Source of the DNA: Macrostomum lignano
Lineage: Eukaryota
Length of the DNA: 64,000 bases
Reading direction: 5' to 3'
NCBI GenBank assembly: GCA_002269645.1
Contig: NIVC01003531.1
Coordinates: 28,643-92,642 of the forward strand
Below are positions 44,808 through 64,000 of the stretch, piece by piece; the first letter of the stretch is position 1; every line of letters begins with the position of its first letter. Both the position numbers and the translations under genes were made by a program. The notes under the pieces are model-generated. The model was not told the origin of the DNA and ran no database searches. It saw nothing but the letters and a program-made list of their open reading frames with translations.

Positions 44808-45113
44808 AGTAGTATAGAAAAAGACGCTTCTAGACCCAGAGCACTTTTTTAATGACCGTTTTAAGGGTCTAGAGGGGGGACACGGGGGGGTAAATAAAAA
44901 AACACATCTAAACACCCTTAACACATCTAATCACCCATAATCACCCCTAACAATAAAAATCACTTCCCAACACTTCCAAACACTCCCCAACACCCCCCTC
45001 GCGTCCCCCCTCTTAAGACCTTACAAACGGCCATTAAAATAAGGTCTGATCTAGAAGCGTCTTTTTCTATACTACTACTCTATAACCCCCTGCCCGCGCC
45101 GCAGGCGCGAAGG
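44808..45113 (+). repeat. left TIR (~306 bp)
   Basis: Reverse complement of the right end with a few differences; the exact outer boundary (44808 vs 44794) cannot be checked without the right terminus. Confidence 0.85.
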
Positions 45114-45485
45114 GGCACAGTCTGACCCAAACTGAGTCATAGAAAAGGAACAGTGTTTAACTATCTTAAAGCAGCTCACAAAAAGAAAAACTTTGCATGA
45201 TCACCCCAAAGGGTCGCAGACAGTCTAATGACTAACGCGGGAATTCGGGGTTTCTATTATACTCATCATTTACCGAAGCGCAAACCTCAGACTCAAACTG
45301 GCTACAACGGGAAGGTGAGTTGCTTACTCATGAAAAGCGCTTTTATTATTTTCAGCACTCCACCCCAAGCTTTAATTGTGTGTATAAGAATGATGAAATC
45401 TAAAAAACTAGCCACAGCAAATAGTCTCTTATTTATGCACAACTCCTAATATCTGTCTTTTACAAGAACTAACAAACGTATTATC

Positions 45486-46373
45486 ATGGCATCATCGAAA
45501 GAAGCAAGGATATCATCTATTGTCGAGATTGCTACGAATTTATCAAGGAAGGATAAGTCATTAATTGGTTGCCGACTTAAAGACTTCTCGGAGAAGGAAT
45601 TGGAGGCCTTACATGATAGTTTAGAAAAGTTGGATGGGGTGAGTGAAAAGAAGCCGACCACCCAAAAGAGGAAAGAGAAAGGTTATGTGGAGAATGTGCT
45701 AGAGACAATCTATCAGAAGTTAGAGGAGAACGAAGATAGAGGAGTTAGTGTGTGCGTGGAAGCGATTACACAAGGCCTATCCCACGTTGGTCTCAAGCTT
45801 GAAGGTACGACCAAACATGATTTGATTGAAAGATTTAAGAAAATAAAGTCATCTATTGAAGCTCTATCGATTGCTAAGGCAATGATGCAATTTGAGCAGG
45901 GTAGACTTATCTACTATTTAAGCACGAAGTATCGAATGACAGAGCGAGAGCTGGCCGACTCATTCAACATAACCAGCCGGAAGGTTGAGGATTATAACAA
46001 ATACTATCAACTCTGCCTTGACTACCCAGGTTTAATTTTTTCTACCTATTCAATGGGCATAGTAATTAATTATAGTGCTGCGATTTGCAAGAAGGCAAAC
46101 AACGATGCCAGGTTTAAGGAACTTCTCAAGATGCAACACGAGACAGTTGCTTTGGTTTTGAAAGATGGCAGTCCTGAAGAAAAGCAAGTTCACCAGTGGT
46201 ATGAAGACAGTAAGTGATTGCTTCACTATTGTGGTAATGTAAGTAAGTTCATATTTTTTAAAGCTTGCTTTTATATTGTAGCTTTCAACGAAGATCCTGA
46301 CGCGGAAGACAAAGCTGAGAGCGCCGCCGAAGTCCGAGAGATGTTCGAAGGAGGAAAATGGGTTAAGAAGTAA
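45486..46373 (+). CDS. uncharacterised Polinton protein with an HTH-like segment; probably spliced (exons 45486-46209, 46282-46373)
   Basis: 243-aa ORF; MTERELADSFNITSRKVEDY resembles an HTH; GTAAGT donor at 46210 and TTTTATATTGTAG acceptor at 46281 join an in-frame 30-aa tail. Confidence 0.6.
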
Positions 46374-46817
46374 ATAATTTGCGTGCTATTTCCATAACTG
46401 TTAAACTGACAATCTTTTTAGTGCATACATGAATTTTTCTCATAGCTTAGAAAAAATCATGTGTGTGTGTGCACCAAACCCTTTTAGTGTATACATGATT
46501 TTTTCTAAGCTATGAGAAAAATTCATGTGCTGTTATAGACACAATGCACCGAGGATAGAGAGAAAAATGGCCATTCATCGAATAAAAAGCGTCCATTGTG
46601 CTCCAGCGGAGCAGGCCATTTGTGCCATCGGGCACAGCCCGCGAACCATAGGTTCATTTTTGGATAGAGAATCTTTTGTGTTTGCGTCTTCTTTATTTTC
46701 TATACAAAAAAGAGTAAAAAAGAGCTATAAAATAAAACCGCTCGAGATGCTTGCACACTACCCTTTTCTTTAGTGTCTGCAACTTAATTTTTCTGTTACT
46801 AAAAATAGAACAAAAAA

Positions 46818-47227
46818 TGACACACGTTACACATATGCAAAATCTGAACGAATTGCAGGTAGGAGACCCAGTTGAATACCGAGGTGAGGGGCTTTTTGAT
46901 GTGGTTGGTACAGCAGCGAATTTCGTTAAAGACAATATGGGTCTTATAGGCCAAGCAGGCTCTGCAGCAGGTTCTATAACAAACGCTGTAAAGGGCGGAA
47001 TCGAAGCAGCGAGGGCAGTAGAAGAACTAAAGAAATTGAGAGAATTTAACGACACCCTCTCACAAATAAAAGCAATAAAAGATTTGAAACTAGCGCAGGA
47101 AACAACTCAAGCTGCACAACCAACAGAAACCCCCACGAAAAGCACACCAATAAGTAATAAAGATATTCAGGATTTTAATAAAATGTTAACCACAATTAAA
47201 GGCGGAAAAGGATTAAAGAAATTTTAA
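46818..47227 (+). CDS. small virion/core-like protein with GxG motifs
   Basis: AAAAATG start; YRGEGL and IKGGKGL resemble adenain cleavage motifs. Confidence 0.6.
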
Positions 47228-47237
47228 CAATATAAAA

Positions 47238-48197
47238 ATGGACTCAGTTAATGACGAAAAACGGCTATATTTTATAGGAGAAATTGTAGATACTTTAAAT
47301 CTAGACGATAATAAACATAGTCACGCAATGTTAAAAAGATTGGATCGCTTAGGTAAAAAATTTGACTACGACATCAATACATTTAAACTTGCTGCGAAAT
47401 ATGCACAAGAAGGAAGACCAATATCCTTTAAGAATCATGGTAGAAATTATAGGCTGACAGACTCCGATGTAAAATTTTTATTGGAGACTCACACTAAAAA
47501 GGACGGCGGGTTGTTACCCATTTTACCAATTCTTTTAGGACTTGGGGCAGCTGGAGCAGCTGGTTTAGCAGGAAAAAGAATTCATGATAACATAAAACAG
47601 TTAGGAGAATTAAAAGCAAAAGAAGGGGGTATATTACCCCTCGCAACTTTGCTCCCAATAATTTTTGCAGGAATTGGAGCAGCTGGAGGAGTCGCTGGAG
47701 GAGCGGCTGGAATTGCAAAAGCAGTAAATGACAAAAAAGCCGCGGATGAAAAAGCCAAAAGAGAGGCCGAATTTCAAAGACAGCAAATAACACAGGACGC
47801 ACAATTCAAACAAAAACTTATAGATACAATTAATAGTAGCTCAGCAACAGCAGAACAAAAAAGAAATGCAGAAGCTAAATTAGCAGCTGGAAAAGGTTTA
47901 ATTTTAAAAGGAACAACCCAAGGAAGTGGAGTTGTCGCAGATAAACTACATGAATTTGGCCAAACTTTAGAAAAAACGGGTGAGAAAGCTAAAGGATTTT
48001 TTGACAATATTGGATCCAATTTTAGGCCAGCAGTTCAGAAGATTTTTACTAAGTTAGGAAAAGATTTTAATATCATTGAAAAACACGACGGAAGCGGATT
48101 ATATCTCGAAATGCGACCAAAAGCAGGTTCAGGAATTTTCTTAAATTCAAACGTTATGGGAAATGGATTGCTATTACCAAAAGCAGATCTCGAATAG
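47238..48197 (+). CDS. core/membrane-active protein with two adenovirus pX(mu)-like hydrophobic motifs
   Basis: KDGGLLPILPILLGLGAAG and KEGGILPLATLLPIIFAGIGAAG resemble adenovirus pX GGILPLLIPLIAAAIGA; several GxGL/I motifs. Confidence 0.65.
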   Translation: MDSVNDEKRLYFIGEIVDTLNLDDNKHSHAMLKRLDRLGKKFDYDINTFKLAAKYAQEGRPISFKNHGRNYRLTDSDVKFLLETHTKKDGGLLPILPILLGLGAAGAAGLAGKRIHDNIKQLGELKAKEGGILPLATLLPIIFAGIGAAGGVAGGAAGIAKAVNDKKAADEKAKREAEFQRQQITQDAQFKQKLIDTINSSSATAEQKRNAEAKLAAGKGLILKGTTQGSGVVADKLHEFGQTLEKTGEKAKGFFDNIGSNFRPAVQKIFTKLGKDFNIIEKHDGSGLYLEMRPKAGSGIFLNSNVMGNGLLLPKADLE

Positions 48198-48280
48198 GCT
48201 CCTGGGGGAGGGTCTGGACACCAAAAACACAAAATTAAAAAATCAATAATTCAAACATTATATAAATTTTATTCTATAAA

Positions 48281-51200
48281 ATGGAAGCAATTTTAGCTCA
48301 AATCGACAACCCTGAACTTAGAGCACAATTAATAGCTCAAATCGATGCACAACGAATTGCCGATAGGGCTGAAATAGAAGCAAGAATTAGGGCAGAAAAT
48401 GAGATACGTTTAGAAAGACAATTAAATGATATTAATAACCCCCAACCACAAGGACAAAATGGAGCTGAAGTAATATATATAGATATAGATATAAATACAA
48501 ATTATAAAGAATATTTTAAACAAATGAAAGATAAATTAAAGACCATATTAAACAATTATACTATAAGGCCAAATAACAAACGACAGCCAATTAAGTATAA
48601 AATAGAAGTTGAAACAGAATTTAAAAAACCAAATATTCTTAATGCAAATTCAGAAATTGAAGTAATAAATAACTTTTCACAAGAATCATATAAAACATTA
48701 TTATCAATGGGAAATTACAACAATCAATTCGATCAAATAGAAGCTGAGTTTGATGAATGGATAGATAAGATGACAGAAAACGGATCTGGGTTTATATTTG
48801 TTCATGTAATTCAGCAACAGTAAAGATTGCACCATAGAAATTCTTAAAGGACGATCACATATGAAGCTCAAATTTAAATCACCTATGATTATAAATCCAG
48901 ACAATAAAGATAATAAATGTTTATTATGGTGTTTATTAATTCATAAATATCACAATCAAGTAGAATCACACATTAATAAAATATATAATTATAGACAATA
49001 TGAGGATGAAATAATAATGAAAAACATATCATACCCAGTAGCAATAGATGATATATATAAGATTGAAAAAATGAATGGTTTAAATATTAATGTGTTTACA
49101 ATTGAAGAACCAAAAGATCTAGAAGAAATTTTAACCGATCCAGAATGGTATAAGAAAAGGTGTTATCTTGTTAAGCCAGCAACTGATATAACAGCACCAG
49201 ATCAAATCGATCTTTTGTACATGCAGCGCGAAAATGAAACACATTATATATACATAAAAGATATTAGTTCTTTTTTAAGAGAAAATAGAAATAGATATCC
49301 ACTATGTAGAAATTGTTTTACATTTAAAAAGGATGAAACAGCTCTTAAAAACCACCAACGATTTTGTTTAGATCACAAATTTACTAATGCTATAATGCCA
49401 GCATCTGAAGATGCAACCCTAAAGTTCCAACAACATTATATGGCAGTTAAAAAACCAATAGTAATATATGCTGATTTTGAAGCAACAAATGTTCCCTTAA
49501 AAGAATCACAGACGGTATCTGATGACGGTGAATGCAATGCACAAAAAAATTGGCACAACAGTTTCCGAATAGTTATTGTATATATGTACACTCTGTAGCT
49601 GATCATATATTTAAATCAAGGATGATTACTTACCACGGTAATGATGCAGCTAAGCACATGGCAGAATCATTAGTAAATGTATTTGAATATATTCAAAATC
49701 AATATGATAAATTATCAAAAAATATTAATATGACAAATAAGGATAGAGACAATTATAAAAATGCAACAAATTGTTTTATGTGCAAAAGACATTTAAGTAA
49801 GAATAATAAGATACGAGAACATTGTCATCTAACAGGAAATTATCGAGGGGCAGCATGTAGATCATGTAATGCAAAAGAAGGAAAAGGATGTAAGGAAATA
49901 CCAGTATTTTTTCATAATGGTTCCGGATATGATTTTCATTTCTTAGTTCGAGAATTGCTTCATTTAGGAAAGGATGAATATGAAATAAATATATTACCTA
50001 AAACATCAGAAAATTACATATCAATAACATATGGTAAGAAATACTCCCATCTAGTTTTTCTAGATTCCTTGAGATTCTTATCAACATCTTTAGCAAATGT
50101 TGTTTCATCATTAGTTCCAAAACCATGGGATTTAGAAATAGTAAAGAAAAACTTTCCAATCTATTGAATCGTTTCAAAAAAGAAAAACTATCCGAGGAAG
50201 AACTAATGCTATTAACTCGTAAGGGCATCTACCCATATGAATATGTAACATCTGAAGACGTATTTTTCATACCGAATTACCCCCAATTGAAAAGTTTTAT
50301 TCAACATTATCACAAACAAACATAAGTGAATCGGATTATGAACACGCTCAAAAAGTATGGAAATACTTTAATTGTAAAACATTTAAAGATTATCATAATC
50401 TATATCTTAAAGCAGATGTTCTCCTATTAGCTGATGCATTTGAAAACTTTAGGAATCATACATATGAGAATTTTAAAATTGATCCCGCATATTGTTTCAG
50501 TGCACCGGGATTAACATGGGCTTGTGGTTTGAAATACACAGATGTTAAGATTGATTTACTAACTGATCATGATATGTTGTTAATGATTGAGAGAGGAATT
50601 CGCGGCGGATTCTCGGGTGTACTAGGAGATAGATATACTAAAGTAAATAATAAATATCTACCAAATTATAATAAAAAAGAAAAATCATCATATGTATTAT
50701 ATCTAGATGCAAACAATTTATACGGTGGTTGTATGAAACAAAAATTACCAATAGCTGATTTCCAATGGGAAGATGACCCCGATTATTACAAAAATATTCC
50801 CGAAGGAAGGGGCTGTATCGTAGAAGTGGATTTGCAATATACTCGGGAAGCAAAAGCAAAAACATATAAATATCCTTTAGCTCCAGAGCATTGTTCAGTT
50901 AATGAAGATGATTTATCACAAACACAAAAAGATTATCTTAAAGCAGATAATGCAAAACATCTAGCAACAAAAAAATTAATATTAAATTTACATGATAAGA
51001 AAAACTATGTAGTGCATTATAAGCTTCTACAATTTTATGAAAAGCAGGGATTAAAAGTGTCTAAAGTACATCGAACAATATCGTTTATTGAGGAAGATTG
51101 GTTAGCTAAATATATTGACTTTAATTCAAATCAGAGACAGATGTCAAAAACAAATTTTGAGAAAGATTATTGGAAATTAATGAATAATGCTTTTTATGGA

Positions 51201-52245
51201 AAAACGGTTGAAAATATTAGAGATAGAACCCAATTCCATTTAGAAAAGGATATTGATAAAGCAAAGAAATATTTCTCAAAACCTAACTTTAAAGACTTTA
51301 TAAAATTTGATGATAACTTTATGGGTATTCATATGAGAAATAAAACAACAAAATTTCTTAAACCAATATTTATTGGAATGGTTGTTTTAGATTATGCAAA
51401 GCTGGTAATGTATGAATATTATTATGATGTTATAAATAAAACATGGCCAGATAACTATCCAATATATGCAGACACCGACAGTTTGGTATTTAAGGTTGAA
51501 ACAGAGGATCGGGCAAAGCCGCGAACCAAAGGTTCGATGTCTATAAAGATATGGAAAAAATTAAGGATACATTGGATACCTCCGACTATCCGGATAACCA
51601 TCCTTTAAAATCAGATCAAAATAAAAAAGTTGTACTTAAAATGAAAGATGAATTAAATAGCAAAATCATAACCGAGTTTATAGCAATAAGATCAAAATGC
51701 TATGCATTTAAGTTTTAGGACAGGAGGGAGAGGTAAAAAAAATAAAAGGGGTATCAAGAGCAGCAGTAAAAAAGATAACATTTGATGATTATAAAAACGT
51801 ACTTTTAGATTACCTTAATACAATTGAAAATTATCATGCTCCACAATATCGATTAAATTCAGATAAGCATCAGATGTTTGTCATCGAGACAGATAAAAAA
51901 ACATTAAGTCCATTTGATGATAAAAGATATTTAGATGATAAAATTAAAACATATCCATATGGTTTAAAAGAAGAGATAAAAAATATGATAAAAGATAAAA
52001 AACAAAAAGAAGATATAATAAGTAAATATAATGAATACAAAGCGGCAATAAATAATTATTATTACGATTGTGATTGTGAATCCGAATGTGATTGTGAATA
52101 TAATACATTTCTAGAATATGAAAAAGATATAGATAATTATTATTCAACATTTCCAAAAGAACTTAAAAAATTAAATAAGGAAAAAGTCTTGAATAACTGG
52201 AAGAGATTAACAGAAAAATTACTTATCGGGTCTGTAAAAAACTAA
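48281..52245 (+). pseudogene. polB: protein-primed family B DNA polymerase (pPolB), frameshifted in this assembly
   Basis: REHCHLTGNYRGAACRSCN, FHNGSGYDFHF, FLDS, RKGIYPYEY, YLDANNLYG, KLMNNAFYGKT, YADTDSL, FDDKR found in order across several frames. Confidence 0.95.
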
Positions 52246-52578
52246 AGCATGTAATTGTTTGAGCAAATCATTAACTTCAATTTCATATATTATTGAGCAC
52301 CAATTATCCTCACAGTCGGCAGGGTAACTTAAACAATCCTTTATTTTTTTCCTAAGTTTTTTTATTTTTCTAACCAATCTATCTATTTCAATTTCAATTA
52401 CTATTTCAGCATAAACAATATCTTGTCTTAAAAAACGTTTTCTTTTATCTATCTCATATCGGATGGGAAACATATCGTCCCCATACTCATGATATTTCTG
52501 AGATATAATTATATTTATTTTTTTATTAATATCATTAAGTTCACGCTCTTTAGTGATAAGGATTTTTATCGTATCCAT
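52219..52578 (-). CDS. hypothetical protein, 119 aa
   Basis: ATG ORF with AAAAATG context. Confidence 0.55.
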   Translation of the reverse strand: MDTIKILITKERELNDINKKINIIISQKYHEYGDDMFPIRYEIDKRKRFLRQDIVYAEIVIEIEIDRLVRKIKKLRKKIKDCLSYPADCEDNWCSIIYEIEVNDLLKQLHALVFYRPDK

Positions 52579-52593
52579 TTTCTTATAAAAAAT

Positions 52594-52926
52594 TTAGTCT
52601 TCGTCGTCATCCTCCCAAACAGCCGCCAATTTTACAGTCCTATCACTCTTTTTATTATTTGTTTGTTTTAGTTTAAATTGCAATCCACCCTCGTTGCAGT
52701 ATTTCATAACAAACGCTTTAGGTTTATTAATAACTAAAACAGGAAAATTTTTAACATCATCTCCGCTTAGACATAAAATTTTTTGCCCATCTAATTGTAA
52801 AAATATTGATTGAAGCCCAATAAATTTAACCTGTCTCAAACATATAATATTATATTCTTTATTCTCCAACATATTGGGTGTGAGATAATTAATCACATTA
52901 GAATCGGTTTTGAACCAGCTCTCCAT
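52594..52926 (-). CDS. hypothetical protein, 110 aa
   Basis: AAAAATG context; acidic tail. Confidence 0.55.
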   Translation of the reverse strand: MESWFKTDSNVINYLTPNMLENKEYNIICLRQVKFIGLQSIFLQLDGQKILCLSGDDVKNFPVLVINKPKAFVMKYCNEGGLQFKLKQTNNKKSDRTVKLAAVWEDDDED

Positions 52927-52952
52927 TTTTAATCTAAAAAAATAACAAAAAA

Positions 52953-53435
52953 ATGAAAGACATTTATGTTTGTAATAAATGTAATGTGACTATGCACAGA
53001 GGGCAAACAGCAAACGGAGATATATATCATATGTGTTATTCATGTTCTAAAATATATCAATTTGAAAAAACAAAAAAGATTGAAAACTCATATTACTATT
53101 TTAAAAACACAATTTTAAGAAATCTTACAAGAGACATTTCTGATCCAATTTTAATTCCCGGAAATAATGTTTATTTATATAATAACTTTTTCCATTTAAA
53201 TAAAGGAAAGGGATTAAGTTCGAAAGACTCCGAAAGGATTTTAATTTTAGTTGGATATTATTTCAATTTTCTTATTCGAGAGAATACAAAGTTTATAAGG
53301 ATAGGTAACATACCTAACGAAATGTTACTGAAAAAGTCATTGGAATTTTTATGTATTGATAAAAAATTTAAACCTAGGATCAGAAGAGAGTTACCACTTT
53401 GGGAAGAATATATAACATATGCATTAAAAAACTAA
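52953..53435 (+). CDS. hypothetical protein with an N-terminal CxxC..CxxC zinc ribbon
   Basis: CNKC..CYSC; AAAAAATG start. Confidence 0.55.
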   Translation: MKDIYVCNKCNVTMHRGQTANGDIYHMCYSCSKIYQFEKTKKIENSYYYFKNTILRNLTRDISDPILIPGNNVYLYNNFFHLNKGKGLSSKDSERILILVGYYFNFLIRENTKFIRIGNIPNEMLLKKSLEFLCIDKKFKPRIRRELPLWEEYITYALKN

Positions 53436-53495
53436 ACAACCTGAAGTTCTACAGCACTTCCTGACCGCGGGCTTTGTGCCCCAGTAGCAATAGTT

Positions 53496-54081
53496 TCAGG
53501 TTCGTAAATGCCTAATGTTTCTATCGGTGGAGCTTTGGGTTTGTCCAAACTCTTTTAATTCCATATCGGTAAAAGTTTCAACATCTAAAATTCTATTTCT
53601 ATCTTTTAAATATTTTTCATATAATTCAACCGCGGTTGATAATTCATGAATCGTTATCTCTCCGTCATCCAATATTTTTTGCACATATAAATATAATTGA
53701 TTTTTATATTGTTGCAACATCTCTTAATGATTTATATTTTTCCTTTCTTTTTTTAAGATATAATTTAATTGCTAAAAGTATTGATAAGTTTCTGATCAAT
53801 TCAAAACCTGATATTGAGCCAATTGAAATACCTAAAAATAATTGAGATAAATTAAGAGTTGGAATAGATTGTAAAATACCTAAAACGATTACACATAACA
53901 TTGATAAGCTTCCAAATCCAATATTGAAAAAATCCATATTTCTTATATGGTTTGAAACTCTTCTTACTTTTTTAGTATATAAATCATAATCATAATTTAT
54001 TCGATCAACATTACTTAACATCTGACCTTTACGTTGGTTGAACCGGTCGCGTTCCCATTTATCTGCTTCAGATACCGACAT
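53496..54081 (-). CDS. two-TM membrane protein (53704-54081), possibly continuing into 53496-53720 through a frameshift
   Basis: Two hydrophobic stretches, FFNIGFGSLSMLCVIVLGIL and LFLGISIGSISGFELI. Confidence 0.5.
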
Positions 54082-54394
54082 TCTCGTCTATTTTTAATAG
54101 CACCAAAATGAATTCCCCACGCTCTTTGGGGATTTGTCCCGAGCTCAATAGGTATTGTATTGGAGTTATTCTTTCTTTTTTCTCCCATTTAAATCCTATT
54201 TTCCAAAACTCTTGAAGTATAATATGATTTTTTAATAACTTAATTAATTCTTGAAGCTTCTTATTATCCTGAACATTTACAGTACTAAATAAAAATTTGG
54301 TATGAGATTTGAATGTTTTTATATTTGATTCTTGTTTAGGAATAGGAATAATAACATTATTTTGCCGCATCGATGGAGTTCTACTAAAAGCCAT
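54068..54394 (-). CDS. hypothetical protein, 108 aa
   Basis: ATG ORF. Confidence 0.55.
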   Translation of the reverse strand: MAFSRTPSMRQNNVIIPIPKQESNIKTFKSHTKFLFSTVNVQDNKKLQELIKLLKNHIILQEFWKIGFKWEKKERITPIQYLLSSGQIPKERGEFILVLLKIDENVGI

Positions 54395-54409
54395 TTTATA
54401 TATAAATAT

Positions 54410-56451
54410 TTAAGTTATTTCGGTTTGTGGCCGTTCCAAATATGCGGTCGCAGCAAAATCATATCCTGCTGATGTGCTACCACAAACGGCTGCACCACGA
54501 ATAAAATGTGCAGCATCCGATCCTCCAGTTCGAGCACCAAAACCCATAAGAGTTCCCGTTTTATCTAAATCTCCCCAAGTTCCGCTATCATATGTAAAAA
54601 AGTTTTGCCCAATTAGCGTATATGTATTAGCTGATACATTGTATGTGCTTATTTGATACCAAACTCTTTGATTTAAAATATTAATTTCAAAAAGATGCCA
54701 ATCGCCGTTATCAATATTAGCATAGGTTATAGTTTGATCTGCGTCATTAAGAACATCATTACGAACTGTTGCTCCGTCTGATTTTATATTGCTCCAAACA
54801 ACCCCAACTCTATCATGCCATTCACTCGCAAACACAATCAAGCCGGCGCGGGTTGTTAACCCGGATCCAAATTCACTTGTTGGACGTTCGTGACAATATG
54901 CATAAAACCAAACAGCGTCAGCACCATCTCCTGTAGCATTAGCAACTCGGAAATAGAAGGAGGCGGAGATATTACGAAAATGGGTGAAATTAAATTGCAA
55001 CGCTCCAGACTGACCACTTGCTTCATCAGTAATTCTAGCTCCATTTTGATAATCAATATAAGTAGCGTTACCAACAAAACTTCCAGTTGGAAAAATATCA
55101 CCGGCTGTGGTTGGGTTTTGATATCCAGTCCAATTGCAAATTACAGGCTCGTACAAAGCGGCATCGATTGCAGGTATTCCATCCAATTTTATTTTATCGT
55201 TAAAAGACATTCGGCCATCCGCCGTTTGTGTTACTCGCGTATCAACATAACCTTTAGTAACAACAGAACTGTTATTGTTTATAGTAGAGATATTAGTAAT
55301 TGTATTACCTCCCATATCAATTGATTGATTAACCACTCCCAAATTTAAATCAAGAATTGTAAACGTCTGTCTATAAATCTGGAAGGTTGACAGACCCGGG
55401 TTGGTTGAACCCGAGTTGATGTAAGACAGAACAATCTGAAATATGAATATGTTTTATCAAAATTTTGTGTGACATTAATTGTTTGAGTTGAGTTATTTAT
55501 TGCTACAGAACTATCCGCAGGTATTAATACGTCCCAACTTGTATTGTCATTACTTCCCTCAAATCGCCATGATGCTGGGTGCTCGGTTGAAGGTGATGGC
55601 CTACCACGTAAATCAATTTTATAACACATTATTGCGGAAGGGCATTGGACTTGAATCCAATAATCGGTTTGAGTATTATTTGTTGCCCAATCTGTTGAAT
55701 CATTTCCATCAAACGCTTTCCAACTTGCAAAATCAGTTGTATTAAATGCAGTGCTTGCGGTTATTGCAAAACCATTTCCACTCCAATCTGCCATGGTAGG
55801 TATGTGACCAGTTTCAACCGTTTGGAATCGATCCTGCTTTAAGGCTCCACCCCAACTAAATTATCAACCTCCGTTTTGGTATAGGAATCAGTTATATCTC
55901 TTTTTAAATTTAAGGAATTATCAACTTCAGTTTTGCTATAAGAATCAGTTATATCTCTTTTTAAATTTAGGGAATTATCAACTTCGGTTTTGGTATAGGA
56001 ATCAGTTATATCTCTTTTTAAATTTAGGGAATTATCAACTTCAGTTTTGGTATAGGAATCAGCAACATTCTTTTAAATTTAGGGAATTATCAACTTCAGT
56101 TTTGGTATAAGAATCGGCCGTATTGCGTTTTAAATTTAATGAATCATCTATTTGAGTTCGAGAATAAGAATCAGTTATATCTCTTTTTAAATTTAACCCA
56201 TTGTCAACCTCTGTTTTTGTATATGAATCGGCTACGTTCCGTTTTAAATTTAGGGAATTATCTATTTGAGTTTTGGTATAGGAATCTGCAACATTTCTTT
56301 TTAAATTTAGTTTAGTATCAACTTCACTTTTTTTATAACCTTCATCTTCATTAATATATCGGTTATCTCCGAATGTAACACTTATTCCACCAGAAGTACC
56401 ACCACCAGTACTTGATGTTCCGTTCCATGAGGGTGTTCCAGAAAATAACAT
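54410..56451 (-). CDS. fibre-like protein (~680 aa reconstructed): 19-aa repeats, F5/8-C discoidin domain, shaft motif, L-type lectin-like domain; three frame breaks
   Basis: YTKTEVDNSLNLKRN repeats; ASWKAFDGNDSTDW..WIQVQ..WRFEGSNDNTSW; IDMGGNTITNI..VTKGYVD; GQSGAL..GDGADAVWF..GDWHLFEI. Confidence 0.8.
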
Positions 56452-56461
56452 TTTTTACTGT

Positions 56462-57112
56462 CTATTTTATAGAGTCTAAAATCATCTTAAATACTTCGGG
56501 GTTTACACGAGCTTCATTCGAAAGTCGATATAAAAAATACAACGCCGCCTGCCCGCAATAACTTTTATCAAATGTTTGAAATTGTTCGTGATGATCTCCA
56601 CATAAACGATTTTTAGTATGATTAAATTTATCTTTTATTTCCTGTAACGGAGGAAGCGCGTATGAATCAAAAAAATAAACAAGTTTTGGTTTTGAATAAA
56701 CTGCTGACCAATGAACACCATTTTCTTTTGTTGTTTCAATATTAACAATGAAAGATCCATATTGTGGTAAGTCTTTTATCTCATCTCGCATAACACATCT
56801 GAATGGTTTTATTTTTAACTGCCGCGCCCAATTTGTTAATTCGATATTGCTTGTTGTGTCTGTTCCATATCTTTGTTTAAAATCATCCCACGTCATGGTC
56901 ATTTTATGTTCCTGAAAAACTTTGGTTTTAGTTAGTTTCGTAGGTGTGGGTTTTAACAATTCCTTTCTTATTTTATCAGCTTGTAACTGCCTTAATTTTG
57001 CTAGTTCTAGTTCGTAATTATCTTCAGCTTTTTTAACTTTTTCTGATTGTTTTTTTAGTAAATTATTATTATTATCGTGCTTTGCACGCGAACATGTTGT
57101 TCGATTACCCAT
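56462..57112 (-). CDS. adenain-like maturation cysteine protease (PRO)
   Basis: GVHWSAV, YFFDSY, QFQ..SYCG catalytic H/D/Q/C order; protease domain begins near MTMTWDDF. Confidence 0.9.
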   Translation of the reverse strand: MGNRTTCSRAKHDNNNNLLKKQSEKVKKAEDNYELELAKLRQLQADKIRKELLKPTPTKLTKTKVFQEHKMTMTWDDFKQRYGTDTTSNIELTNWARQLKIKPFRCVMRDEIKDLPQYGSFIVNIETTKENGVHWSAVYSKPKLVYFFDSYALPPLQEIKDKFNHTKNRLCGDHHEQFQTFDKSYCGQAALYFLYRLSNEARVNPEVFKMILDSIK

Positions 57113-57153
57113 TTTTACTATAGGAAACGGACAAAGTCCGCGAACCTTCGGTT

Positions 57154-57934
57154 CTAAACCTGTTTTATACGTAAAATTACTGTTATTGATTGCCCACCAA
57201 AACTTATTAATCTATCGCTTTCATCTACAATCCTAATATAAATTGATTGAACATTATATTGATTTAATGGGTAATATATTGGGGTTTGAGGTGAACAATC
57301 ATTTTCTCTCCAATTGGAACAGCAAGAAATGGGATTGAATAAATAATTCCACGTTGAACCAAAACTCCATTATTATCTGTTATATAACCACCGTTTGAAT
57401 GTCGGTTGTTATATTAATTGTATTACTCCACCCTCATATTTCCAACTGTATCACCGGTGCTTGATGTGGTAACTATTCGGGAATTAAATCCAAGTATGGT
57501 TCTGAGTGAATTTGCAATTGTGAAATCAACCTGATATCCGGATCCTAGTGATAGTGTGAATCTGCCAGACGGTAAATCAACACCTATAACAATTGCTCCT
57601 GCTACCCAATCACCATTAGTTGTTAATTCTCCTTCTATATAAGCATTCAAATCAGTATAGCTATACGCTCCTGGGTTAACGCTAAATGTTGTCCAATTGG
57701 CTCCGGAATCTTTAGAATATCTAAATTGATTATTTGTTGCATTAATTAATTGAGGCATGTTAAAACCGAAAATAGTATTAAACCTATTTGATAACTTAGG
57801 CTTTGATCAAGTTGTAATGGATCGCGCAATTGAATCCGTTGCTCGCTGGTTGTCATTATAAACTGTAATGTTGTACTAAATTTTGAATTAGTTCGATCTA
57901 CCAATTGTTTTATAGTATCTAAATTTGTAGTCAT
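57154..57934 (-). CDS. minor capsid protein (penton-like), frameshifted
   Basis: NNQFRYS..PGAYSYTDLN, NSLRTILGF and C-terminal IRIVDESDRLISFGG; position between ATPase and PRO. Confidence 0.8.
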
Positions 57935-57936
57935 TT

Positions 57937-58746
57937 TTATAGTGGGAAATTATTGCTATGTCTCTCTTCCTCATTATCTTCTTTTATCAAATTTGTTAAA
58001 ATTCTATGTTTCCTTTCTAACCTCGGATTGATATAAATATGTTTGTATTGGCTATCATCCCAAATTTTTTTACACATACTTTTAAATGGTTTTGCATCCA
58101 ACCGGGATTAAATCTAGCGTGTATATTTTGTAAATCATAATTATCTAAATCAAACATTACACAACAACTAGCATTCTTTTTTATAATCGATTCTAATTCT
58201 CTAAAGGATTGAGTAAGATAAAAAGCTCCAATTCCATCTCCTCTACCACTAACAAAAATTTCCTTTTGCAATTCTTGATCACCGTCATTAATACAATCAT
58301 CAAAAATAATTAGTGTTTTATCATGTTTTGGAATTTGATCATAGGCTAATCGGGTTGATACTCTAACAGTTGGGGCTCGATCGGACGAAGTCCGCGACCC
58401 TTCGGGCGATCGTGATGTTTTCTGGCTGTTGTGCCATTGTTTTACATAAATCCTCAATGTCTGCTAGATTAAATCGCGGTTCGTCATCATCCTCATATTG
58501 CTCATATGCTCTTAACATTCTAAACAAGACATCTTTTTTTAATTTGTTTTTTAATCCATGTTTAAGAAATTCATAATATTTTATTCTAGGTTTATTAGTA
58601 TAAATTATTAAATTATTATAGTCTAACATTCCATCTGTTGTTAATAAATCGTAAACAAAGTGTGTTTTTCCTTTACCTGATCCTCCGATTACTAAACAAA
58701 GAAAAGGATCATTTGGAAATATCTTATCGTGTTTTGCCTTTACCAT
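57937..58746 (-). CDS. A32/FtsK-like packaging ATPase, frameshifted
   Basis: Walker A GGSGKGKT, Walker B LIIFDD, SGR..YLTQS. Confidence 0.9.
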
Positions 58747-58797
58747 TTTTAAAGAAATAATTTAAATAGGCGCGACGGTCGGAGACCTGCACTCATT

Positions 58798-60266
58798 TTA
58801 CAATGGCGCGTCCCGAACAATCGTGCCATCAGCTTTAGCAATTGACATATATTCCTCTAGAAACAATACGTGGGCGTCAAGTGCCTGATTACCGGTTTTA
58901 TTAATCTCTAACATATAATTAAGTCCAATATTGGCTACGTTTTCTTTCTGTGCCGTTAGATCATAAACAACCACTGGATGAATGTTTAGAAACTCTGTGG
59001 GTGTGTACTGAGGGACGGCATACGCTTCATTTTTGGCATAATCTTGATAATATTTTATAAAATCATTAACATTATTATTTGCTATATTTAATTAGGGTCT
59101 TTAACCGGATAATATTGATCATCAACCTGCAGGCGGATATTCTGAACATTAAACTCGTTAATAGCTGCAGCCGCATTGTCTGTTGCGGTGGCTGCTTGTT
59201 CTGCTATGGCACCGGATTGAAGCCAATATAAATCCCCATTTGCTCTTTTACTCCTTCTATTTGTTATCTTAAACCAAACAAAAATATATCTCACCCGACG
59301 TTTTGATGTCAGTATTTGCCACTGGAATGAATCCTGGTTATTATTAATGGTTCGCATAAAATGTCGACGATTCAAATAAAATATTTCCTGATCATGCGTT
59401 AACTGATTATCGATGTGTTTTAAAAGTGGGGCTGTTACCTCAATAGTTGGTACGACTAATTGAATTGAATCTATACGAACTGCTATATCGGTTGAAATTG
59501 AGGTTCCATAAAGTATCCTAGGCTGATATCCACCAGATATTTGCAACTGTATCCCAAATTTTAATCCTTTCCATACCCGATTTGGTGAGAAAAACCCAAA
59601 TAGTGGAAAGATTGAAAAGTCCTGCTCATATGCTGTTGCTGTGGTTAAAACCGCGACTGGGAATTTATTCTGACGATCTATAAAACCAGTATTAATATCT
59701 TTTGTATTAGTCATAGTGGTTACAACTGGAACTATGTTTGTATTAAGGTAAACAATTAGCGCTGCAGTATCTGCACCGGCTGCGTTTTGTACATTAGGGA
59801 AAACTACTGCTTGACCGTTACCTTTATCCGGCATCCACCCAACATTATCACCAACTTGTTTTGATAAATAAGTATAATTTAAATGTTTCAAAACTCCATT
59901 AATCTCTGCGGGGTTTGATGATGTCTCAACCTCAGCACCATTAACAGTTAGTTGAGCTTGGGAAAAACATTTATAAAACCAATCATTTTCTATTATTATT
60001 CCGGATCGATCTGCGATATCTCCGGCTGCAAGAGCAGTTCCATCATTTCTAGTATACAACCATCTAACGCGGAAAAACGCATTTTTCATATCCAATATAG
60101 TGTTGGTTGCGCCGATGTCAAAAGTTACCGTTCCAGTAGTAAAGTTATTTGAATTATCACTTGTTGGTAGGGTATAATTTAAATCTCTTGCTCTGACCTC
60201 ATTAATATACTGTCGGTGCTTTTTGAAATGAAATTTATCACTCCACATAGTTTTTGTTTCAGCCAT
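58798..60266 (-). CDS. major capsid protein (double jelly-roll, hexon-like), ~490 aa; one frame break near 59086
   Basis: ILDMKNAFFRVR, FSQAQLTVNGAEVE, RVRYIFVWF, IRLQVDDQYYP, then FLNIHPVVVYDLT in the next frame. Confidence 0.85.
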
Positions 60267-60300
60267 TTTTTTAAGTTAAAAAAGTTTTTTATGTTAAAAA

Positions 60301-60969
60301 ATGAGTCAATTTATGGACGTTGATGGAGAGTTAGCGATTTATAAAGAGAAGCAAAGATATTCTGATTTTGTTAGAAATTTACAAAAAAGAAAGTTAGGAA
60401 TACAATTAGCTGGTGAAAGATTTGCTGCTCCTTTTGTTAATCCTATTACTGGGAAAATTAGTGAACTAGAAAAAACAGATAAAGATCTTCTGGAAAAAAT
60501 TGCTAAAAATACTGAGCCAAAAGAGGATGAAATTTTGGATGAGCCGCCTGCTTATGATGTTGATCAAGCTCAATTGAGAGTTGCAGAGATTAGGGCTGCA
60601 GAAAGGGGTGGAGTTGATGAATATCCGAGAGCTGCACCAACTAGTATTGCTGTGACAGATTTAGGTAATAATAATTATCGAATTGGTGGAGTTGATAAAA
60701 ATCGAAATGAACTATATAGAGAATTGGGCGGAGCATATAATATTGTTATGAACCCTAGGGTAAAATTTAACCCTGATTATATACTAGGGATGAATTAGTA
60801 AGTGCAAAAATTTTTTATGATGAGTTAGGAGTAAGAGCTGTAAAAATACCAGCTTGTATAAAAGGATTGTTAATTCTATAAATAACAAACCAGCTGTTGG
60901 AGAAGGATTTAAAACACCGCGAAAACTTGTTTTAGCTGCTGCGAAAGCTGCTGGACATACTGGAGTTTA
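60301..60969 (+). CDS. conserved uncharacterised Polinton protein, frameshifted near 60790
   Basis: 165-aa ORF plus a downstream frame ending VGEGFKTPRKLVLAAAKAAGHTGV. Confidence 0.55.
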
Positions 60970-60997
60970 ATTAATTGTTAAATTTATTTTTTATAAA

Positions 60998-61542
60998 ATG
61001 GAAACTAAAAAGATTTGTAGTCGATGTAAAGAAGAGAAACCAATGACTAAAGATTTTTTTAGATGGAGAAATGATTCAAAAAAATTTAGAAATGATTGTC
61101 GATCTTGTGAGAAAGTTATATCAAAACTGTGGAATAAAAACAATAAAGAATATATAAAAAATAAATATCACACTGATGAAAATTACAAACTTATTATCAC
61201 CTCACGAAATAGAATAAATCAACTATTAAAATCAAATAATGCTCGAAAAAATAATCATACTATTGATTACCTTGGTTGCTCAATTGAATTCTTTATTGAT
61301 TGGTTAAATTTCACAAAACATTATTATGTTCAAAAGACTATGGTGGTGCTTTACATATTGATCATTTTATTCCTGCTTCTTCATTTAATTACAAAGACGA
61401 AGATCATATGAAAAAGTCTGAACATTGGACAAATAAAAGATACTTAGCTGCTATTGATAATAAAACTAAATTTGTTAAACAACCAACAATTGAAGAATTT
61501 GCAAAACAATTGGTGCTATCATGTATTTTTAAGGCTATAAAA
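60998..61542 (+). CDS. HNH-family endonuclease (NCLDV/phage type), one frame break near 61330
   Basis: N-terminal CSRC..CRSC, YLGCS..F, HIDHFIP..F..EHWTN....DN..K. Confidence 0.8.
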
Positions 61543-62368
61543 ATGAGCAATCATGCGACGCATGCGAACCAAAGGTTCGATCGACGAAGTCCGCGTTCCT
61601 TCGAACGATCAATTAGTATTTGAAGGAGGATTTTAGATGTTCAAAAAGGATTAACAAGCTTACCACCAATATTTACTACTGGGAGGTATACGGGTGAGCT
61701 ACACCTACCATCAATGAACTTCACAGGTTATCCCGTGGCCTGAGTGAGGAAGGCAATGTCCTTGCTAGTCACTATTTGTGGCGACATCTCCAAATTGCGT
61801 GAAACCCGTCATACAGCTTCAAGTACCACTTCAATTGAGAAATCTTTTGAAGGAACAGAGGTAACTCCTCTTCCCAAAGGTAAAAAGCTTGAAGACATGG
61901 TGGCAATGCGCAGCCAAGCTCCTAAGTATTTTAAATATAAGGAGAAGGTTCAGAGAGCAGACGGAGATGGGCGGTAATTATCGCCGCTTAAGGTGTGCTC
62001 CAGCCTCTTTCGAAAGATTGAGGGTAAACTACCCGGCACTCGCTTAGATTTGAGATTAAATCCTGACAATACTCCAAAATCTGATTCAATTCCAATAAAT
62101 GGGATTGATTGGTTAGCATACTATCACGACTTAGCATATAGAGATGCTGACAAGAACCCGCCGAGGAAGCATTAAGATTAAAACATGAAGCCGATCAAAA
62201 AATGATTCAAGGATTAGATAACTTGCAGGGATTATCGGTAGGTCAAAGATTAACTAGGTGGATGGTTAAAAAGATTTGCAGTCTAAAGTTAAATTTGGTT
62301 TGGGAATTAATTATAATCAACATGGAAATAATTGTGTCGAGTGTTTATTATTAAGTGGTTGTTGTTAA
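61543..62368 (+). CDS. parvovirus-type phospholipase A2 protein (PLA2X-like), interrupted by a group I intron (exons 61543-61728, 62032-62368), with frame breaks
   Basis: Spliced sequence reads GELHLPSMNFTG|PGT..PINGIDWLAYYHDLAY: Ca-binding GPG loop and catalytic HD..Y. Confidence 0.85.
61729..62031 (+). ncRNA. group I intron, subgroup IC1-like, ORF-less, 303 nt
   Basis: P1 CAGGU/GCCUG with U.G at the 5' splice site; P3 CATCTCC/GGAGATG; P AAATTGCGTGAA and Q AATGCGCAGC; P5abc with GAAA tetraloop and A-rich bulge; P7 G(A)GAGCA/TGCTCC; P8; P9.0 AG/CT. Confidence 0.9.
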
Positions 62369-62379
62369 GTGGGGAGGTT

Positions 62380-63178
62380 ATGTTCATGATTCTTCATAAA
62401 GAATATCGAAAACCTAAATTTTATAGAAAAATCATGAACTTCAAAAAGAATGAAATTTGGTATGCTGATTTAATGTCGATGCCGAACGAAAGAGGATATA
62501 AATATATCTTAACCATATTAGATGGTTTTACTCGATACGCGTGGGCTGTTCCTTTAAAATCCAAAAAGGGAGAGGAGGTTGCTGCTGCTTTTAGAAGTCT
62601 TGGAGAAAAAAGCGAAAGTTGTGTGTTGATGAAGGAAAAGAATTTTACAATCCTCATATGTATAAATTGTATCATTTTGAAAAAGGAAAAGAAAGGAAAA
62701 AAGACGCGAATGGGGAGTATATTAATAAAATTTATTCTATTTATGGAGAGAGTAAAAACGCATTAATAGAAAGATTTAATCGAACTTTAGGTAAGAAATT
62801 ATGGTTTCAGTTTAGTCTTAATGGTAACCAAAAGTGGGTAAAAATATTACCAGACGTAGTGAAAGATTATAACAATTCATATCATTCGGCGATAAAGATG
62901 ACTCCTCAACAAGCTTATAACAATCCTGAAAACGTTAAAGTTACTTTTGGAAAATTTGAAAAAAATAAAAAGAAATCTTTTAAGGTTGGTGATTCTGTTT
63001 ATATCTATAAATGGAAAGATAAGTTTGAAAAGGAAGAAAAGGATATTGGAAGATAAGTGAGAAATTTACTATCAGTAAAGTTTTAAATACCAATCCTACA
63101 ACCTATATAATTGCTGATAAGGACGGTGAAGAAATATTGGGTTCGTTTTATGAGAACCAACTAATATCAGCGAACTAA
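62380..63178 (+). CDS. retroviral-like (rve) integrase, two frame breaks
   Basis: WYADL..YKYILTILDGFTRYAWAVPLKSK, VDEGKEF, IERFNRTL, YNNSYHSAIKMTP, FKVGDSV. Confidence 0.95.
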
Positions 63179-63217
63179 GTTCGAAAAGTTACTTGAGACA
63201 ACATGGTAGTAAATTTT

Positions 63218-63412
63218 TTATACAAACAAAAACAATATTATTACTATAATTGTTACTAATATTATTATTGACATTTGTTCAACTGTTATCAAACTTAAAT
63301 TTTCATTAAGTTCATTAATTGGAACATTTCCGATGTAGGAATAGTTTACCTTCATTTTTTTATATATATTTTTCACAATAAATGTCGTTTCTGTTATAGA
63401 ATAATAGTTCAT
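63218..63412 (-). CDS. small protein with a C-terminal TM helix
   Basis: 64 aa ending MSIIILVTIIVIILFLFV. Confidence 0.5.
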   Translation of the reverse strand: MNYYSITETTFIVKNIYKKMKVNYSYIGNVPINELNENLSLITVEQMSIIILVTIIVIILFLFV

Positions 63413-63428
63413 TTTTTAAATATTTTTT

Positions 63429-63743
63429 TCACATAAAAATTTCACTTTCATTCTCTGAATCGCTGGTTTCATATGAACTATTTGTTGATTCGGAATCTGT
63501 TGATCTAACCTCCCAATCATCCGAATTTAAATAATCTCCAAGTTGAAATATTAACTCACCCTCTTGTTCTAAATCATACATCTCATCTAGCTCTAATGGA
63601 TAAAGTTTTAGGTCGTGCTTGTCGTCATATTTTAAATAAACTTCATCAATTATTCCATTCAAAATATGTTGTTTTATTATCTCTGCATTTTTAGCAACAG
63701 TCTCAAAAGTATCACTAACAGAAAAGGTGTAAACTCGGGTCAT
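63429..63743 (-). CDS. hypothetical acidic protein, 104 aa
   Basis: AAAAATG start; Ser/Glu/Asp-rich tail. Confidence 0.55.
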   Translation of the reverse strand: MTRVYTFSVSDTFETVAKNAEIIKQHILNGIIDEVYLKYDDKHDLKLYPLELDEMYDLEQEGELIFQLGDYLNSDDWEVRSTDSESTNSSYETSDSENESEIFM

Positions 63744-63762
63744 TTTTAGTAACAGAAAAAGA

Positions 63763-64000
63763 CCTTCGCGCCTGCGGCGCGGGCAAGGGGTTATAGAGTA
63801 GTAGTATAGAAAAGACGCTTCTAGATCAGACCTTATTTTAATGGCCGTTTGTAAGGTCTTAAGAGGGGGGACGCGAGGGGGGTGTTGGGGAGTGTTTGGA
63901 AGTGTTGGGAAGTGATTTTTATTGTTAGGGGTGATTATGGGTGATTAGATGTTTTAAGGTGTTTAGATGTGTTTTTTTATTTACCCCCCGTGTCCCCCTC
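63763..64000 (-). repeat. right TIR (truncated by the window end)
   Basis: Reverse complement of 44872-45113. Confidence 0.95.

Follow-up and report, generated by a model that had tools for sequence, protein, structure and literature searches.

A GGNCC-depleted Polinton family with a group I intron in its PLA2-integrase gene and a candidate restriction-type homing nuclease beside it

The closest described system is that of cyanophage S-PM2, in which the free-standing nuclease F-CphI adjoins a conserved gene, psbA, that carries a group I intron without an ORF. According to the accessible parts of the two accounts, this intron breaks up the presumed nuclease target and prevents self-cleavage, and free and intron-borne nucleases both have a place in a proposed route to mobile introns (PMC6083498, PMC3984707). 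The Polinton family reported here likewise has a free-standing nuclease gene next to a conserved gene, a group I intron that has no ORF and breaks the presumed target, and, together with its relatives, both free and intron-borne nuclease forms. Unlike the S-PM2 pair, it is a eukaryotic virus-like element in which two unrelated nucleases alternate in one slot, and the free and intron-borne forms are present in one host genome. The enzyme implicated here further differs from F-CphI in its type IIP restriction fold and in an apparent 5-bp site that a genome-wide purge has made unique. With the type IIP enzymes Eco47II, EcoO109I and AvaII it shares a fold, an E..D..ELK motif and a weak match to PF09553. 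In contrast to these enzymes, it is 167 aa long, is often intron-encoded and has no recognizable cognate methyltransferase: a motif scan of frames of at least 80 aa in 42 partial stretches, including the window element, revealed no C5 or N6 motif set. Protection here seems to come from site loss and the intron.

Other systems resemble single parts of this arrangement. Polinton-like viruses of protists also carry ORF-less introns (309-376 bp there) and free or fused HNH genes; in the available text of that report the gene that holds the intron is short, unannotated and placed before MCP, and a nuclease partner is not described, whereas here the intron splits a PLA2-integrase gene at a defined, predicted nuclease site (PMC12220804). 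Collaborative homing has been raised for such viruses, in the accessible part of one paper, as an analogy only (PMC11296320). Adintoviruses with PLA2X share the Polinton gene set and a parvovirus-type PLA2 domain, but, as far as the accessible account goes, the PLA2 of our element differs in being fused to an integrase rather than to pX and in being intron-split (PMC8502044). In the part available of a 2013 review, the nuclear group I introns known at the time are said to lie in rRNA genes (PMC3679873). Searches of the openly accessible main-text literature turned up no account in which an intron is paired with a GGNCC-type nuclease.

The locus is situated close to the right-hand end of a 19.1-kb Polinton within the window, by which we mean the whole 64,000-nt stretch of Macrostomum lignano contig NIVC01003531.1 that was analyzed. 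Its features, in window coordinates, are as follows.

44875..63998, no strand assigned: Polinton/adintovirus-like element, 19.1 kb, with terminal inverted repeat (TIR) arms at 44875-45113 and 63763-63998 (about 240 nt)
60301..60970, + strand: conserved upstream gene (223 aa in other copies), the left flank of the swap slot
60998..61623, + strand: slot gene, here HNH/endonuclease VII-like, with N-terminal CxxC..CxxC and C-terminal DH..N..N
61543..61728, + strand: PLA2-integrase exon 1, whose terminal codon is the Gly codon GGT of the G-P-G loop
61547..61611, no strand assigned: a pair of hairpin units, each about 30 nt long, that form a polymorphic insert where HNH and PLA2 overlap
61729..62031, + strand: ORF-less group I intron, type A, 303 nt, final base A, between the Gly and Pro codons GGT and CCC
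62032..63178, + strand: PLA2-integrase exon 2, encoding Pro-Gly-Thr.., the HD catalytic motif and then the rve integrase core

The element has the TIRs, protein-primed PolB, rve integrase and A32-like ATPase that define Polintons and adintoviruses, with Pfam matches to PF03175, PF00665 (under cut-off) and PF04665 (weak). When we checked for capsid and protease genes, ORFs of 392 and 216 aa had no informative Pfam match; both are kept in a sister family. The intron-interrupted gene is a PLA2-integrase fusion (PF08398 and PF00665). In the window copy, the upstream gene, which has no Pfam match, is broken, exon 1 is frameshifted near 61540 and 61630, and exon 2 contains several frameshifts. The same PLA2-integrase gene is a single open frame in the intron-less copy L061. 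Elsewhere in the window, a PolB fragment (49532-50167) contains an Endonuclease_7 domain (PF02945, E 6.8e-8) that resembles the HNH insertion described for nematode and oomycete Polinton polymerases; for nematodes, HNH domains are reported in the accessible part of 10.1101/2023.08.22.554363. A fibre-like ORF holds 57-nt tandem repeats (55802-56414) and adjoins a discoidin (F5/8 type C) gene (55345-55794), and the host flank contains an intact Ty3/gypsy gag-pol ORF of 1287 aa (37554-41417).

To sample the family, we searched one genome assembly (G000, 764 Mb), in which a PLA2 exon-2 pattern identified 143 copies. We took the 127 exact matches and further loci found with intron and HNH patterns. 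Dropping 17 duplicate fetches left 148 loci, and the junction was readable in 142. The pooled counts that follow are not independent, because the copies are related to one another, possibly with haplotype duplicates among them. Three loci (L001, L003, L004) have the 5′ part of HNH and the upstream genes swapped for another part of the element, an internal deletion or rearrangement. In three others (L166, L173, L178) a different large polymerase-like ORF of 850-890 aa, without a match to the window PolB, suggests a swap of the replication module.

The sequence-only reading of this DNA had pointed to an ORF-less intron, and this is borne out. The window matches RF00028 at 61719-62022 with 64.2 bits (gathering threshold 50), and comparison with L061 sets the intron ends at 61729 and 62031, between the Gly and Pro of the G-P-G loop. 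The final five bases of exon 1 pair with 61738-61742 to form P1 (CAGGT/GCCTG, 5/5 pairs), and the U-G pair at the 5′ splice site and the G-C guanosine-binding pair in P7 (located from the Rfam alignment) are both present. In place of the terminal omega-G, the window copy ends in A. Among 115 copies of this type A intron, 83 end in A and 30 in G, with 2 unread. A natural group I intron lacking the terminal G is known from corallimorpharian mitochondria, where, according to the accessible account, the exons of ND5-717 are ligated in vivo (PMC6545197); unlike that case, A- and G-ending forms segregate here within one family. The two forms have the same P7, and each is found with either slot nuclease. 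Because L061 and the G-ending alleles define it, the type A 3′ site is fixed. Other nearby G-ending 3′ splice sites were rejected, as they would give a stop codon, a frameshift or a three-residue insert in G-P-G.

A second intron, type B (24 copies; L064-L071, L080 and others), has the same 5′ site and a different core. It shares peripheral parts with type A and forms P1 (5/5 pairs) and P3 (7/7 pairs); Rfam misses it in L065 and L080 and also misses the type A copy L078. Its 3′ end, placed by likeness to the metagenomic copy L205 described below, gives G-A-G-L-T instead of G-P-G-T in 24/24 copies, so that Gly-Pro is gone. Intron type is linked to the nearest exon sequence only (r2 0.18 and 0.24, about 0.01 beyond), as expected after short co-conversion, although part of this linkage is forced by P1/P10 pairing. 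The P7 of the window copy (61950-62000) shows compensatory changes (GAGCA/UGCUC against the consensus GACUA/UAGUC), and L205 and the sister-family copy L236 keep the usual form. The intron also contains a 77-codon open frame (61744-61977), which is the frame entered by the intron-borne nucleases of relatives and may be due to chance; a search from it for longer proteins retrieved none and was insensitive, as such proteins exist.

The A ending, found in 83 of the 113 scored type A introns, could impair splicing. The PLA2 exons are conserved to a like degree (dN/dS 0.23-0.28 and 0.06-0.07) whether the intron before them is A-ending, G-ending or type B; this fits function and may also reflect recent shared history. 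None of the public runs in which the locus turned up is registered as RNA. Contigs of runs X1, X5 and X6, which we guess to be RNA, contain no exon joint, although contigs cannot show absence, and one X1 contig passes unspliced across the 3′ site. The sole intron-less joint in public runs (X16, for which the kind of run is not recorded) has a different exon 1 and is probably a DNA allele.

Different copies carry different genes in the slot that separates PLA2 from the 223-aa upstream gene. Of 142 copies, 100 carry HNH, 37 carry a 167-aa nuclease resembling Eco47II, 2 carry an acidic ORF and 3 are disrupted. The acidic ORF (153-155 aa; L097 1202-1669, and L098) is followed by a 3′ remnant of HNH and resembles the middle of the upstream gene of divergent copies. 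The slot allele is almost unlinked to its flanks (r2 at most 0.09); thus, there is no visible co-conversion footprint of a free nuclease.

We characterized the 167-aa protein by sequence and by fold. It matches PF09553 (Eco47II) at E 4e-4 and 20.6 bits, under the cut-off of 25.9; precomputed PF09553 assignments are present in 3 of its 9 homologues, and it matches Eco47II and EcoO109I clusters in the Atlas. A search of PDB sequences gave no match. The predicted structure (pLDDT 89) has EcoO109I as its best fold match (Z 9.9, rmsd 3.4, 163 of 167 residues aligned; next match Z 6.7), and the top Foldseek hits are DdmD, EcoO109I and AvaII. Four residues are invariant (E49, D65, E76 and K78) and form the E..D..ELK motif. 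The slot nuclease thus has the PD-(D/E)XK fold of the EcoO109I class, at 13% identity to EcoO109I. In the accessible parts of the sources, Eco47II recognizes GGNCC (PMC10305163) and EcoO109I recognizes RGGNCCY (PMC3089450). Because the PF09553 match is below cut-off and identity to EcoO109I is low, we read specificity from fold and site loss together, by which the Eco47II-like nuclease most likely cuts GGNCC.

In the genetic code, Gly-Pro is always written GGN CCN. Therefore, the empty insertion site is always GGNCC, and the prediction that this sequence marks the insertion site was set down before any counting. The window element contains no GGNCC, compared to 22 expected from dinucleotides and 12.9 from a third-order estimate. 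GGNCC is the most depleted of all XYNZW words in the element, and apart from its four variants no 5-mer is absent from both strands. The 26 ORFs of the element encode no Gly-Pro (6.9 expected), and under a synonymous null the mean number of GGNCC was 4.7, with zero in 13 of 1000 cases. The loss extends across the family. Element-aligned DNA totalling 200 kb, taken from 39 stretches that represent 21 copies, contained 3 GGNCC against 231 expected, compared to 163 against 204 in unaligned DNA. From upstream gene to integrase in 113 loci, GGNCC is absent from all 110 intron-bearing copies and occurs once in each of the 3 intron-less copies, at the insertion point. Thus, the target predicted from fold and site loss is the intron insertion site and is elsewhere absent from the element. 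One stretch of the sister family, whose PLA2-integrase is about 60% identical, is similarly depleted (0 against 8.5 expected). Controls were near expectation, with 125 GGNCC against 150 expected in the host part of the window (44.9 kb), 15 against 14 in the gypsy ORF and 19 against 19.5 in an unrelated PLA2-bearing family. Six loci (L208, L216, L217, L221, L230, L232) belong to unrelated GC-rich intron-less elements with a dUTPase, a stand-alone PLA2 and an ATPase, in which GGNCC is at the expected level.

A model that we consider probable is that the Eco47II-like enzyme cuts GGNCC, that the family has shed its sites and that the intron hides the one that is unavoidable. The main partner of the intron would then be this PD-(D/E)XK nuclease, alternating with HNH in the slot. 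The family has lost GGNCC wherever possible, the sole exception being the Gly-Pro of the PLA2 G-P-G loop, which cannot be purged because its codons always spell the site. The intron breaks up GGNCC in DNA and would restore it in RNA, and would thus confer immunity in place of a methylase. In an intron-less relative the insertion site would be the single place cut, and the intron would spread when an intron-bearing template is used for repair. With all other sites purged from the family, a 5-bp cutter could serve as a homing endonuclease, and its pairing with the intron may work like the collaborative homing of F-CphI. Host DNA is rich in GGNCC (the 125 sites counted above), and harm to the host is therefore expected of a free 5-bp cutter that is not limited to a lytic stage. 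On the broader reading, a eukaryotic DNA virus family would possess a restriction system that needs no methylase, consisting of a GGNCC cutter that doubles as the homing enzyme, genome-wide site loss and a shielding intron, with free-standing, intron-borne, ORF-less and empty states and a rival HNH segregating in one host genome. We hold this reading to be evenly poised between right and wrong.

The location of the nuclease differs between families, being free upstream of PLA2 in the window family and intron-borne in the sister family. A metagenome contig (Ga0224502_10072777; L205) has the same PLA2-integrase gene and an intron at the same site, with the nuclease ORF inside; this intron matches RF00028 at 80.6 bits and ends in G. 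L236, a sister-family copy from G000, has the same layout (84.6 bits), with the ORF frameshifted near its end. Nuclease motifs of the sister type lie 257-302 nt behind an intron start in 23 of 26 cases. Three such motifs about 1.5 kb apart (G000:C954 75631, 77215 and 78718) represent tandem amplification of the intron region, and L218 (643-808), also of the sister family, has a complete gene without an intron, with a second PLA2 exon 1 and the 5′ stub of an intron lying upstream of it. Nineteen sister-family loci are empty alleles, and no Eco47II-like nuclease was present within 1.5 kb of 28 intron-less PLA2 sites. Among the nine clusters of Eco47II-like homologues, reading into the intron core is seen for the representatives of five and for one member of a further cluster. 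In a nuclease tree (midpoint root, deep support 86), the free copies form one clade among intron-borne sequences. Searches of viral contigs with the PLA2-integrase, the Eco47II-like alignment and the intron pattern, and of prokaryote genomes with the Eco47II-like alignment, gave no matches.

These data also bear on whether the GGNCC cutter is mainly a weapon against host DNA or co-infecting viruses, with the intron providing self-immunity kept by addiction and homing being incidental. We regard this as unlikely. A complete purge does imply that the whole 5-bp site is cut, a weapon would find GGNCC at expected levels in host DNA and the unrelated family, and no methylase motif accompanies the enzyme. 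Moreover, purifying selection on the nuclease lasts (dN/dS 0.23) though 139 of 142 copies are without a target. Against this stand the intron-borne nucleases of L205, L236 and about 23 sister copies, which have the layout of a mobile intron, and the 19 empty loci, which are as in a homing cycle.

The earlier reading had instead assigned the intron to HNH, as a free-standing nuclease that cuts intron-less PLA2 alleles. Its description of the gene proved correct: an HNH gene with CxxC/CxxC and HIDHFIP..HWTN..DN does lie beside the intron. In the window copy it is split into two overlapping frames (60998-61411 with CxxC..CxxC, and 61300-61623 with HIDHFIP..HWTN..DN; break near 61330). In other copies it is a single open frame of 189-209 aa, open through the catalytic motif in 71 of the 99 scored. 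The L007 protein matches phrog_1035, "endonuclease VII", at E 1.6e-11, and 2458 relatives were retrieved at E 0.001; a Pfam search with the HNH alignment gave no informative match. Among 29 aligned proteins the H of D-H..N..N is invariant and the D and both N occur in at least 90%. The model (pLDDT 92) has hits to the HNH domains of Hpy99I, Cap5, Cas9 and GVE2 only at Z 5.8 or less, and dN/dS is 0.49 overall and 0.35 in the catalytic half, indicating purifying selection. HNH remains plausible as a predicted homing-type nuclease. The gene does adjoin the insertion site, but the reported distance of about 190 bp is that from the PLA2 ATG; its stop lies 105 bp upstream of the intron in the window and, in 78 of the 88 copies scored, 106 bp upstream. 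In the window copy the second frame does continue across the PLA2 ATG at 61543, but this is a peculiarity of few copies: of the 71 HNH copies that are open, 67 extend over the ATG in a different frame and then stop. An HNH-PLA2 fusion was therefore rejected, as read-through into the PLA2 frame is copy-specific (4/71).

We then asked if HNH and the intron occur together. The intron is present in 139 of 142 copies, and this limits the power of the comparison. HNH copies comprise 81 with type A, 16 with type B and 3 with no intron, compared to 30, 7 and 0 for Eco47II-like copies, and the slot gene is independent of whether an intron is present (Fisher p 0.56), of its type (p 0.80) and of its terminal base (p 0.32). 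All three intron-less copies carry HNH with an intact catalytic motif, although the HNH of L093 is broken near its start. HNH lies outside but adjoining the intron-bearing gene, as in collaborative homing, but a second defining feature, absence of the nuclease beside the uninterrupted target, is seen for the Eco47II-like gene (0 of 37, which at p 0.56 is not significant alone) and not for HNH. We therefore do not class HNH as a member of a collaborative-homing pair. The proposal of a free-standing nuclease serving the intron thus has support, mainly for the Eco47II-like allele, and the co-occurrence comparison goes against its assignment to HNH.

That HNH is nevertheless the main collaborator of the intron seems quite improbable, since this would also leave the GGNCC purge unexplained. 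Some data point toward HNH. Besides its proximity and its purifying selection, its PHROG label places it in the motif class of F-CphI, as given in the accessible part of PMC6083498. HNH subtype 8 occurs solely with type B introns, in 9/9 haplotypes compared to 2/57 for other HNH, and on several flank backgrounds; shared descent inflates the p-value of this association. The tail of one HNH relative, P0012, matches intron nt 40-174 (62%, E 3e-14) and is the same as the tail of the Eco47II-like P0175; thus, both nucleases appear to enter the same intron loop elsewhere. From these protein sequences, HNH and the Eco47II-like nuclease appear to alternate inside an intron there as they do in the free slot here. 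Because HNH relatives also appear to occur inside a homologous intron, HNH may collaborate as well. The tail is confined to the P0012 cluster (one of seven) among the 150 listed relatives, and the metagenome and viral contigs searched supplied no DNA context for P0012. In the best explanation, HNH is an interchangeable occupant of the slot, exchanged by recombination in the flanks, and would represent a second free-standing homing-type nuclease recombined into it.

The two hairpin units noted at the HNH/PLA2 junction were also found, at 61547-61611. This insert varies in steps of about 30 nt and is missing from many copies; it is present in 6 of 35 Eco47II-like copies and 41 of 98 HNH copies (p 0.013, copies not independent). 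The hairpin family consists of GC-rich units of about 30 nt, located in the window at 46629, 51509, 57128, 58382, 61552 and 61583 and in L236 at 2440-2630. Besides this junction, the element has five further places with such units, and the intron of the sister family has them as well. They lie in coding regions and introns and mostly preserve the frame. Given this wide distribution, which includes Eco47II-like copies, the suggestion that HNH moves the hairpins was rejected as unsupported.

It is very improbable that GGNCC loss was imposed from outside, by an enzyme of a co-infecting virus or microbe that thereby fixed the intron with both slot nucleases as passengers: giant viruses do carry restriction systems, according to the accessible part of PMC12220804, and the purge is as complete in elements that bear HNH or lack the intron as in those that bear the nuclease, but free recombination among copies accounts for a shared purge, unrelated PLA2-bearing families in the same genome are unpurged and the site itself encodes a nuclease whose fold is of the GGNCC class.

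Our results support the reading in which the Eco47II-like nuclease and the intron form a pair and bear on how such pairs gain specificity. Homing endonucleases obtain uniqueness from long sites. Here uniqueness seems to be made by the genome, through removal of a short site everywhere except where the genetic code forces it at Gly-Pro. The intron lies in a protein-coding gene carried by host chromosomes, and expression of the integrase and PLA2 may require the splicing of an intron whose last base is mostly A. If the model is true, the intron would clearly benefit its carrier, and a restriction-type enzyme would work without a methylase in a eukaryotic virus.
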